From the NCBI GenBank assembly GCA_965113315.1, contig OZ220373.1: a stretch of 64,000 nucleotides of DNA, one strand, 5' to 3'. Of the stretch, positions 30,237 through 64,000 are shown piece by piece; position 1 is the first letter of the stretch, and the number at the start of each line of letters is the position of its first letter. The notes beneath the pieces were generated by a model that made no database searches, was not told where the DNA came from, and saw only the letters and a list, made by a program, of their open reading frames with translations. The DNA comes from Podarcis vaucheri (Eukaryota). The translations under genes and the position numbers were made by a program.

Positions 30237-31318
30237 TGTCCTGGCCCTCACTGCCAGATGAAGAACTCAAACTCCCAAAGGTTTCTGCCAAAGACTTTAA
30301 TGCTTAAATCAGAGCTGTGCATAAGCAAGGCACAATTACAAGGTACGGCAGGAGTGCAGGAGAATACATGTCCGGGAGCCAGCTAAGGTGTTTGTTATGG
30401 TTCCAAGGGGTTGCTCGAGAGCAAGCAGGCAAATGCCTCCCTCTCGGCTGTGAAGCCTTGCTTTTGATGCCAAAATAAAATTTATCTGTCCAGAGCGCCA
30501 CTCTCCCGTGGCTGGCTCATTCACTGGCAGAATCCGTGAGTGGGCGGTCCTTAAACCTTCCCCAGCAGAGTAGTTTCTTGACGCCCAGTCTGCGCCTCCC
30601 CTCTTGGCGCGGAAGCCTACTGCGCAAGGAAGGCGTGGGTAACGGGGGACCTCTCTCCTTCCCGCTTTGCTCAGGCAAGGTGTCCTGGCACCGCCTCGCC
30701 TCCTCCGAGCCCTGAAGCTCCTCTCCACTGGAGGCGTGGTTACTCTCCTCCGCTGAGGAGGAGCTGCTTCCCATGATCTTTGGGGGCTCTCTGTAATCCA
30801 TCCGGCTTTTCCCCTCTCCCCCCTGAGCCGATGGCAGTTCCCTGACAGTGTTGATCCATCAAGTAACATGCCTCCTGCACCTTCCTTCTGCCAGCCAGAA
30901 TCCCAAGACCGGGCAAGCGAATGGAAACTACAGCTGCGCTGAGCTTGCAAGCTCCGTTTGTGTCAATTCTGGCGTTCCTGTGCCCTAGGAGGTGGAGATG
31001 GAGTCAATGCCTGTTTGGCGTCAGATTCGATCTCAGCGGCCTCCCTCATCACTGACAAGGGAGTGTGCTGGAGGTGGTTCTATGACAGGAGGGATCTGAC
31101 TAGCTGTGTCCCGTGTCACTAGAGCAGAATGCTCCTCTGGCAACCTGCTTGGTCCCTCCCCAAGAACTAACTCACCATCCTCCATGCTCTTTCCCTGACC
31201 CTTCTTGGTCATCTCCCACTGATGCTTTCCCAATCTCCGCTAGGATGCTCCCCAGCTCCAGCTAACTGTGCTCTTCCCAGTCCTCTTCGGGATCAAACTA
31301 GCCCCCCCCCCCACGACA
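30237..31318 (-). mobile_element. Older solo-LTR-like element (family C) interrupted by the 30393-30847 LTR
   Basis: TGTC/GACA termini, purine-rich 5' half on the minus strand, ATTAAA on minus at 30296-30301; no clean TSD, so the left boundary is uncertain. Confidence 0.5.
30393..30847 (-). mobile_element. Solo LTR, family A (divergent subfamily), nested in another LTR
   Basis: Minus strand TGTCAGGGAACT...CCATAACA; perfect TSD GTGTT; open frame 30846-30517. Confidence 0.88.
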
Positions 31319-38845: not shown

Positions 38846-39266
38846 TGTAATGGGTTTAGGGGTTGCTCGTGTGTAAGTTGCCGCCACTGCTGGCGAGGTT
38901 ACCTGGTTAAACCCTTTCTGACTGAACAGCCTCCAGCATCGTGACTGTCTCAGTCGCTGGCAGAATCCGTCAGTGGGCGTTTCTTAAACCTTTTCCAGCA
39001 TAAAAGCTGTTTGACGCCAAGTCTCCTCCTACTCTCTTCTGCGCAGGGAGGGTGTGGGTAGCGGAGTACCCGTACTCTCTCCGCTGGTCTCCGGCGAGGA
39101 GTCTTGGAGCCTCCTCTCCGATTCCCCCATCTGCCCCCCTTCTCCACTGGTGTTACGCTGATTTCCTTCCCCAGCAGATGGGCTGCCTCTCTCCCTACTG
39201 GGACCCTCTCCGGCATCCCTCTGGAGCCTTCCCTCCACCTCTAGCTCCGATGGCAGTTCCCTGACA
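38846..39266 (-). mobile_element. Solo LTR, family A
   Basis: Minus strand TGTCAGGGAACT...CCCATTACA; perfect TSD CAAAA; homologous to 63454-63889; one internal deletion breaks the frame. Confidence 0.88.
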
Positions 39267-52005: not shown

Positions 52006-52146
52006 CTAGCACATTGACGAAGAGATCAAAAAACTGGAAAGTGAGAAGAGGCTCCTTCATGTGGCCATAGTAATCCGCTATGGTTCTGAAGACATCTCTT
52101 TCAAATCCTGAGTATGTCGGTTGTTTCAGATCCGGACACCTGGGCC
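52006..52146 (-). CDS. DEPDC1B: DEPDC1B coding exon 7 (141 bp)
   Basis: aatag|GGCCCAGG...GTGCTAG|gtaag; PRCPDLKQPTYSGFERDVFRTIADYYGHMKEPLLTFQFFDLFVNVL (inside ORF 51380..52246). Confidence 0.96.
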
Positions 52147-61862: not shown

Positions 61863-63453
61863 TCCAATAAAAGAGAAAAACAATACAGTGGAAACACAAT
61901 TATTATTTATTAAATTCGTATACCTCCCTTCATACCGGTTCACAGAATAAAAAGATAAGATGATTACTCAGCAACATGTAGATTATGGGAGAAAGCACCA
62001 CAGGGATACAGTGGTACCTCAGTTTTAGAATATAATCCATTCCGGAAGGCCGTTCGAGTTCCAAAACCAAAAACTCAATATGGAAAACTCAATACAGAAG
62101 CTGAGCTTCCTGTTTGACTTCAAAGGCATGTTCAAAAACTGAAGCATTGACTTCTAGGTTTATGGCATTCAAGTTCAGAAATGTTCGTCAATGGAGGCGT
62201 TTGAAAACGGAGGTACCACTGTACAAGAAAAATACTGCAAAATATATTTTTGTCTCTATGGACAGTCACCATCCCAAACCATGGGTCTCCAAAAGTTGCA
62301 CCCTGCTCACTTTTAAATCTGGAACTGCCCAACACTGGAATATGGGCCCTGGAAGACGGGCCACAATGAAATTCAGCCCACAGGTTGTAAAAGGTTTTCC
62401 CATTTTGTTTGAAACAGAATAGTTACAGCCTTAATTTTTCATGCTTGATAACACTACTGATAAATACTAACTGGACAAAGAGAGGTTTCGTGTAACTCCT
62501 TCCCTAAAAAAATAACTTCTAGCTTTTTAAAACTACTTTGATACACATTCTGGGAACTTGGGGCGGTGGGGAGGGACACACGTTTAAGATGGGGGAGGAA
62601 GAAAAAAAGCAGAAACCGACTTCAACCTAGAGAGGGAAAAGGTTGGTTCAGAAGGGTCAGGGGACCAATCCAGGAAATCAGAAGGGAGTTAGTTTGTTCT
62701 TCTTTCATGAAGATCCTGCTGCACCCTGCATAGGGCATGTGTTGAAAGGAGACCTGGATGCACTGAATGAAGGTTCTGCTTTACAACACTTCTAACTGTA
62801 CGCTAAAGTTAGGGGAAGGATAACTGCTAGGGGAAGGATAACAGTTGTGCTTTGTATGCAGGAGGTCTCGGGTTCAACCCCTCTCACCTGCACTTAAAAG
62901 GTCAGGTAGCAAGAAAGGCCTCACTGCCGGAGACCATGGAGAGCCACAGGCAATGCAATGCAAAGCTAAATAGGCTAATATGTGTGGCACTTACATAACG
63001 CCGTGAACCTATTTCATCACGGCTGCAGCATAAACAAGCAGGGATCGGCCGCCACGGAATAAAATCCATTATTTTGCAACTTATTACGACATCATTTGTA
63101 TAAATAAAATGACTGGTACACCCAAGGGAACACAACAGTATAATTATAAAATTGCATTATGGCACTATCTGAAAAGATTAAAGTTCAGCATTGCAAAAAT
63201 GCAAATACCCAATTGGTCTTAAAGGTAGACCAGTGAACAGGGACACTTATTTATTCGTTTCAGTATTATAAATTGTTTCATATAAAACACATTGTTTTAT
63301 AGTATACTGTGTGTTTCATTCATGTTGTAACACACAGTATTACAATAAAACCAAAGAAAAACGTAAATAAAAGAAGAATCCTGAAATAACATTGTTGGGT
63401 ATATTCAATGGAGACAACCAAGGATTATTATAGAAACATTTACTTATTGGTTA

Positions 63454-63889
63454 TGTCAGGGAACTGATATCGGAGCGAGAGGCAAAGGGGAGGCTCCCAG
63501 ATTATGCTGGCGAAGGTCCCAGCAGCAGGGGGAGAAACAGCTCAGTAGAGGGGGAAGCCAATCAGTGCAACACCAGGGATAAAGGGGGACAGACGGGGGA
63601 AGTGGAGAGAGGACTCCAGGACTCTTCACTGGACATCAGTGAGGAGAGCCCAGGTCCTCCGCTACCCACACCTTCCCTGCGCAGAAGACTCCCGCGCAGC
63701 GAGAGGAGGAGGAGACTGGGTGTCAAACAACTTTTATTTTGGAAGAGGTTCAAGAAACGTCCACTGACGAATTCTGCCAGTGACTGAGGCAGCCACCATG
63801 AGAAGGGGCTGTGCAGTTAGAAAGTTTTAACAAGGCAAATTAGCCAAGAAAGGCACCAGTTTACGCACGAGTAACTCATACCCATTACA
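63454..63889 (+). mobile_element. Solo LTR, family A (ORF-bearing), inserted in an L1-like fragment
   Basis: TGTCAGGGAACT...CCCATTACA termini; perfect 5-bp TSD GGTTA; open frame 63455-63787. Confidence 0.88.
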
Positions 63890-64000
63890 GGTTACTTATT
63901 AATGGCAGCAAGAATGATAGCTAGGAACTGCAAAAGAACAAAGAGTTTAAATGGACAAAATTGGTATAATGTAGTTTCAGACATAGCACTTTAGTAGGAT

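Follow-up and report, generated by a model that had tools for sequence, protein, structure and literature searches.

The open frame in the LTRs of a lizard chromovirus is the C-terminal end of Pol and probably part of an integrase tail for nuclear import and chromatin tethering

The window analysed here, the whole stretch of 64,000 nucleotides from Podarcis vaucheri (G000:C31:25358001-25422000), holds three solo long terminal repeats (LTRs) of one retrotransposon family, which share the start TGTCAGGGAACT and the end ...ACA and are each flanked by a perfect 5-bp target-site duplication (TSD). They are a subfamily A copy of 436 nt on the plus strand (63454..63889, TSD GGTTA at 63449-63453 and 63890-63894), a subfamily B copy of 421 nt on the minus strand (38846..39266, TSD TTTTG) and a subfamily C copy of 455 nt, also on the minus strand (30393..30847, TSD AACAC). 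From base 2 of the subfamily A copy a frame of 110 codons plus stop runs without a start codon (63455..63787, plus strand), and the subfamily C copy has a frame of 109 codons plus stop (30517..30846, minus strand), the two stops being at homologous positions; these frames and the coordinates, duplications and common start of the three LTRs are as the initial annotation gave them. The subfamily B copy carries a 14-nt deletion, absent from its relatives, which shifts the frame after codon ~78. In the subfamily A copy, codons 7-66 (63473..63652, plus strand) code for a Ser/Gly/Glu-rich linker predicted to be disordered, and codons 67-110 (63653..63784, plus strand) for a Pro/Arg-rich block with an LGV..LLCW helix and a basic end. 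In first-look searches the three LTRs gave 2783, 1869 and 3892 candidates and the peptide gave 9860; these are candidates and not copy numbers, and the family consists of thousands of candidate copies. The target sites of 59 solo LTRs show a mild preference, with G/C at the outer positions and T/A at the inner three. In addition, a stretch resembling an exon lies on the minus strand of the window at ~52010-52140; its Atlas lead (score 0.89) is of RhoGAP type, and we take the stretch to be DEPDC1/DEPDC4-like. The solo LTRs on the minus strand may lie in introns of this RhoGAP-type gene.

The parent element was recognised from two LTR matches 10.3 kb apart on C41, which enclose one element with a TSD and LTRs 98.4% identical. 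This element codes for gag with a zinc knuckle, protease, reverse transcriptase (RT), RNase H, integrase, SH3 and chromodomain as judged with Pfam, the chromodomain (PF00385) lying above the cut-off at the integrase C-terminus; env is not present, and no tandem repeats of note were found in the element. A Ty1/copia element with one 1330-codon frame is nested in the chromovirus pol (L031:2985 to L032:977, G000:C41 ~6534484-6538476). C41 itself (41.3 Mb, 2.6% of the assembly) carries 57 of the 90 listed internal-region matches by hand count and 2 of the 40 listed LTR matches, which are both ends of one element. It looks like a non-recombining chromosome, likely the W, where full-length copies would escape solo-LTR formation.

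The relation of the LTR frame to Pol is given by natural copies. Among 30 loci found with the stretch from chromodomain to LTR, the chromodomain is in frame with LTR base 2 in 19; 13 of the 30 reach the LTR stop without a break, and in 11 the acidic stretch is interrupted. In four copies (L042, L046, L049 and L056) an open frame of 698-750 codons spans integrase and LTR. The 5.6-kb element L183, which has a TSD and LTRs 97.9% identical, keeps a pol frame of 1420 codons between the protease and the LTR stop; its gag overlaps this frame and is read in a different one. The layout of subfamily C is likewise, the frame of L077 continuing upstream into the acidic stretch. Pol thus has the order protease, RT, RNase H, integrase, SH3, chromodomain, an acidic stretch of ~95 residues and ~110 LTR-encoded residues, with a single stop at LTR ~333, and ~210 residues lie beyond the chromodomain (Pfam end 488 of 702 in L042), half of them LTR-encoded. 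It is practically certain, therefore, that the LTR frame is the C-terminal end of Pol, read through the polypurine tract (PPT) into the 3' LTR. The initial annotation had noticed that the copies share no ATG and had placed the beginning of the frame in the internal region, as either an unusually long Pol/integrase tail or an accessory gene; the former is what the natural copies contain. Since both LTRs derive from the same ends of the RNA, every LTR, solo ones included, carries this frame, although Pol cannot be made from a solo LTR.

A single open frame of 110 codons is weak evidence on its own, being found by chance in 3.5% of 20,000 composition-matched random sequences. The frame is open, however, in 26/30 of the closest A-type copies and in 20/30 C-type loci, six of the latter having one common flank. 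These six (L074, L076, L079, L083, L086 and L088) lie on different contigs with identical flanks and represent one insertion carried inside a larger duplicated repeat. The most central natural copy is open (102-112 codons) in 14/14 subfamilies with at least two members, and in older groups the frame has 109, 113 or 116 codons.

Selection on the frame was examined by codon comparisons. Between the copies 63454 and 30847, the last 44 codons comprise 21 identical codons, 14 synonymous differences and 9 amino-acid changes, which reproduces the earlier manual count (35 residues identical); the differences fall 10/3/18 on the three codon positions and the NG86 dN/dS is 0.21. For the family, 164 distinct LTR copies were clustered after exclusion of L093-L122, which had been picked by peptide identity, and of duplicates with the same flank; 133 open copies entered the codon count and 31/164 were left out, nearly all of them with stops or frameshifts. 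Between nine subfamilies dN/dS was 0.23 (CI 0.14-0.37) for codons 67-110 and 0.72 (0.54-0.95) for codons 7-66, and between eleven, after addition of two older subfamilies (14 used of 20 open copies among L225-L264), it was 0.25 (0.17-0.35) and 0.75, respectively, where the comparisons are pairwise and not independent and the intervals, as column bootstraps, are approximate. Within the block, codons 83-99 gave 0.15 (pS 0.63, pN 0.18; eleven subfamilies), and codons 103-110, which overlap the self-primer described below, had a lower pS of 0.31. The four non-mirror frames of the block gave dN/dS of 1.07-2.34 with 8-25 stops, and the antisense mirror frame gave 0.30, as expected. Variable columns of the block are distributed 20/11/32 over the codon positions, second positions varying least, and Leu70 and Leu88 are invariant though encoded by four to five different codons. 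In the three subfamilies with internal regions, dN/dS was 0.08 for the integrase core, 0.05 for SH3, 0.12 for the chromodomain, 0.17 for the acidic FxGF stretch, 0.77 for the PPT region, 0.49 for the LTR linker and 0.21 for the LTR block.

Purifying selection on the protein is therefore strong only for the last 44 LTR codons. The initial annotation had claimed it for a frame of ~110 codons and had proposed a dN/dS comparison across subfamilies as a check; the claim holds for codons 67-110 and does not for codons 7-66, in which the frame is retained and the constraint on the sequence is weak. Changes private to single copies gave 0.65-0.83, with pN/pS of 0.65 in the block; these values lie below 1, probably owing to CpG mutation bias and to the use of open copies only, and part of the deficit between subfamilies may have either source as well. 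Selection acted on the replicating element, and solo LTRs have private changes that come much nearer to neutrality.

No tRNA primer site was found after the 5' LTR. Instead, an 11-nt word two bases after the 5' LTR is the exact complement of LTR ~307-320 in 13 of the 22 listed cases, while 6 of the same 22 have private changes and 3 look like chance hits; such a complement is expected by chance at about 1e-4. Word and primer site covary, in that for three variants of the LTR word, which occur in different subfamilies, the primer site is altered to match, and the R-U5 stretch folds with the self-primer pairing at z -4.2 and -4.1. In the window the word lies at 63763..63773 (plus strand) in the subfamily A copy, with one private change against the primer-site complement of full-length copies, at 38974-38964 in the subfamily B copy and at 30541-30531 in the subfamily C copy. 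A long hairpin is also predicted directly after the Pol stop in R in both subfamilies folded (L031:757-905 and L183:5417-5566). The self-primer implies a predicted transcription start near LTR ~310, so that the word would mark the RNA 5' end and the U3/R border, and with this start the frame would span all of U3 and end about 22 nt into R, its last ~8 codons doubling as the predicted RNA self-primer. In the accessible text of the papers on Tf1/Sushi elements, self-priming is a trait of this group (PMC6317226, PMC4600332) and Sushi att ends have the form TGTYANR ... CNTNACA (PMC3601003). The 5' motif fits all three LTRs of the window, and the 3' motif fits A and B with one mismatch in C. By domain order, chromodomain, self-priming and att ends, the element is a Tf1/Sushi-type Ty3/gypsy chromovirus.

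Searches with the LTR peptides gave nothing above the Pfam cut-off, with HTH_92 at E 0.25 only; the PDB sequence search with the LTR block gave no match and the Atlas clusters no usable match for the tail. A profile search of 1.84 billion representatives returned six matches, all of the same family or Podarcis gene models and none from a named non-lacertid species, which does not imply absence there. Because the LTR block matches no Pfam family, solved structure or Atlas cluster, its role is read from composition. AlphaFold2 predicts the tail as mostly disordered (mean pLDDT 52.5), with helices only at 6-14 and 189-199, the second being LGV..LLCW, and the basic block has the spacing RRR..10..RFKKR, which we take to recall the consensus of a bipartite nuclear localisation signal. 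Among sequencing runs carrying the element, no RNA run is listed. The raw RNA reads of four runs with the same species label as some of these runs (148-209 each) cover the LTR at a depth of about 1-30 on both strands and the internal region at 0-4.5; at this low depth they give no start or end sites and are uninformative on pol expression, and no splice joint into the LTR frame was found among them.

Upstream of the LTR, and so outside the copies of the window, the acidic stretch contains two units, each consisting of a putative helix with Phe, 8-9 acidic residues (a D/E/S/T-rich linker of 8-9 residues) and FxG[FW]; the last motif is present in 41/41 long internal copies, twice in most. The accessible text of PMC9987994 describes the TND-interacting motif as a helix, an acidic linker of 8-16 residues and an optional FxGF, and FxGF as essential for binding to LEDGF and HRP2 (PMC9987994). 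With the solved-construct sequences of the LEDGF partners JPO2, POGZ and MLL1 as reference, a strict pattern (hydrophobic residues at -4 and -1), which fits the four known motifs, was found in 24/56 tails. A widened pattern, which admits Q/G/A before the helix Phe and was chosen to include subfamily A, gave at least one unit in 52/56 tails and two in 38/56, as compared with one unit in 0.4% of shuffles and two in none. In subfamily A of the window, position -1 is G in unit 2 and Q in unit 1. The strict pattern occurs in Podarcis Pol models and in P0001, P0129-P0131 and P0133. The last of these, a distant relative (53% identity), retains LLCW close to its C-terminus as well as a strict helix-acidic-FxGF unit. 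In copy L256 (~2440-2500) an internal deletion has brought the middle of RT next to the last part of the second FxGF unit, which precedes the 3' LTR; this copy belongs to an older subfamily, which means that older subfamilies also had the FxGF motif. AlphaFold2 predicts a helix at unit 1 with low confidence, and the PDB sequence search with the acidic stretch found only FTO, at E~1.

The chromodomain aligns to HP1 with E 2e-6. Of what are presumably the HP1 aromatic cage positions, L049 has N at the first and E at the third, and the other tails compared have H/N and E there; judged by these residues, the chromodomain lacks two of the three methyl-lysine cage aromatics and is not of type I (the type II definition is given in the accessible text of PMC3059260). 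The host genome contains the IBD exons of PSIP1 and HDGFL2. When the lacertid LEDGF domain was modelled in complex with unit 2, the prediction scored 0.34, with 0.01 for the best control, 91% agreement of contacts and a partner pLDDT of 55-58; the method is uncalibrated for peptides, a score as low as this was given to only 5/78 solved microbial complexes but to all 4 passing mismatches, and like complexes have been solved, so that the pass may be owed to memorised structures. The model thus lends weak support to binding of unit 2 by LEDGF.

We consider it probable that the open frame, as the last ~110 residues of Pol, closes an integrase tail of ~210 residues, predicted to be mostly disordered, which would serve nuclear import and chromatin tethering. 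The basic LTR block with its conserved LGV..LLCW helix would be the import or docking segment, a role suggested by composition and by analogy with the Ty1 tail. More tentatively, the two helix-acidic-FxGF units may mimic the cellular motif and would bind the TND (IBD) of LEDGF or HRP2, steering integration in place of a chromodomain without two of its three cage aromatics. HIV integrase also uses the host protein LEDGF; to our knowledge, lentiviral integrases bind it without an FxGF-type motif. Loss of the cage would then have been offset by the gain of TND-motif mimics together with the LTR-encoded basic docking segment, and integrase would reach transcribed gene bodies via the tether of HIV, which we put forward with the same caution.

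The tail could instead be selected as protein and act inside the particle, in RNA/cDNA binding or stimulation of RT, with FxGF coincidental or meant for another partner. The Arg/Lys-rich block could indeed bind nucleic acid, and the Ty1 integrase C-terminus, in the accessible part of a preprint, also stimulates RT (bioRxiv 2022.07.13.499880). The strict motif in only 24/56 tails and the weak complex prediction suit such a role as well, but the acidic-FxGF units are conserved (dN/dS 0.17), duplicated and kept in the relative of 53% identity. Acidic motifs, moreover, generally bind nucleic acid poorly, and on the whole we regard action inside the particle alone as unlikely. Much less probable is conservation of the block as DNA or RNA (core promoter, transcription start, self-primer and R hairpin), with Pol reading through to the first stop. 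The position of the block, which extends from shortly before the predicted transcription start to beyond it, the near-neutral linker (0.72-0.75) and the strong R-U5 fold (z -4.2 and -4.1) would agree with it, and because of the self-primer overlap it has real force for the last eight codons (103-110, pS 0.31), but not for codons 67-102, for which it is already largely refuted. There, pS of 0.63 stands against pN of 0.18 in codons 83-99, Leu70 and Leu88 are kept over four to five codons and second positions are least variable. Furthermore, the central copy is open in all 14 subfamilies, yet the length after the stop varies through all three phases, and A and C both keep LLCW but have different TATA-like words.

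A separate U3 accessory gene like nef or sag, expressed by splicing or through an internal start, was the other option of the initial annotation and is hardly tenable now that natural copies show the frame joined without interruption to integrase and chromodomain. The placement in U3 fits such a gene and a spliced or proteolytically released form is compatible with the DNA, but the frame has no shared start codon, the element has no env and the RNA reads, at their low depth, contain no splice joint into the frame. Co-option of the peptide by the host from solo LTRs can be given hardly any credence. Pieces of the LTR peptide do occur in three Podarcis muralis UniRef models, namely an ATPase (A0A670JKR6), a SEC7 protein (A0A670J3D8) and Gla (A0A670JKI3); these models are, however, automatic and each a single-member cluster, the candidate copies number thousands, and solo copies decay, with 31/164 left out, nearly all for stops or frameshifts, and private changes near neutral. 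The three models (P0002, P0124 and P0125) represent mis-annotation or exonisation.

The reading of the frame as a Pol tail for import and tethering can be set beside several known systems. The V-clade Tf1/Sushi elements of vertebrates, e.g. Sushi-ichi and Amn-san, are alike in domain order, with SH3 and chromodomain after the integrase, and in the self-priming site and att ends, as far as the accessible text goes (PMC6317226, PMC4600332, PMC3601003), whereas the lizard element adds the post-chromodomain tail of ~210 residues, half LTR-encoded, with FxGF units. Pol that runs into the 3' LTR and codes there for a targeting segment is described, in the accessible text, for plant CRM group A and some beet chromoviruses (PMC3059260, PMC3605345). 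CRM-A resembles the lizard element in this respect, but its hosts are plants and not a vertebrate, its CR motif (CHDCR) replaces the chromodomain and it is primed by tRNA-Met, while the lizard element keeps an upstream chromodomain and self-primes; the two LTR-coded tails are likely convergent. The Ty1 integrase tail, according to the same preprint, is long, disordered and CK2-phosphorylated, with a bipartite NLS at its end that holds a short targeting domain (bioRxiv 2022.07.13.499880), and may be likened to the lizard tail by layout; Ty1 differs in belonging to Ty1/copia, in a tail that is not LTR-encoded and in binding AC40 of Pol III. The motifs of JPO2, POGZ and MLL1 have a helix ending in Phe, an acidic Ser/Thr-rich linker of 8-9 residues and FxGF, a shape that the lizard units follow with a putative helix, but in many lizard copies no hydrophobic residue precedes the helix Phe and binding is weakly predicted. 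HIV nef and MMTV sag likewise have coding sequence in U3 of the 3' LTR; they are separate genes made from spliced RNA, whereas the lizard frame is the end of Pol.

The LTR frame is new neither in principle, in view of the plant CRM precedent, nor as a sequence, since UniProt Pol models of Podarcis muralis, e.g. A0A670HKZ8 and A0A670K6E2, already hold the tail, unnamed; what stands is the vertebrate case. In the literature covered, which comprised open texts, partly accessible, and not subscription journals, supplements, Repbase or Dfam, no LTR-coded Pol tail of a vertebrate and no FxGF in a retrotransposon integrase was found, and an earlier description in those other sources is possible.

The element is thus a clear vertebrate case of Pol encoded across the whole of U3, a layout that we found described only for plant centromeric chromoviruses, and one stretch of it would serve at once as protein, promoter region and RNA primer. 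The LTR-encoded Pol tail also explains the LTR-derived peptides that contaminate lacertid gene models. If the FxGF units bind LEDGF/HRP2, a retrotransposon would have arrived convergently at the tether of lentiviruses through imitation of a motif of the host cell, and the choice of integration sites by chromoviruses with degenerate chromodomains could then be tested directly with peptides.
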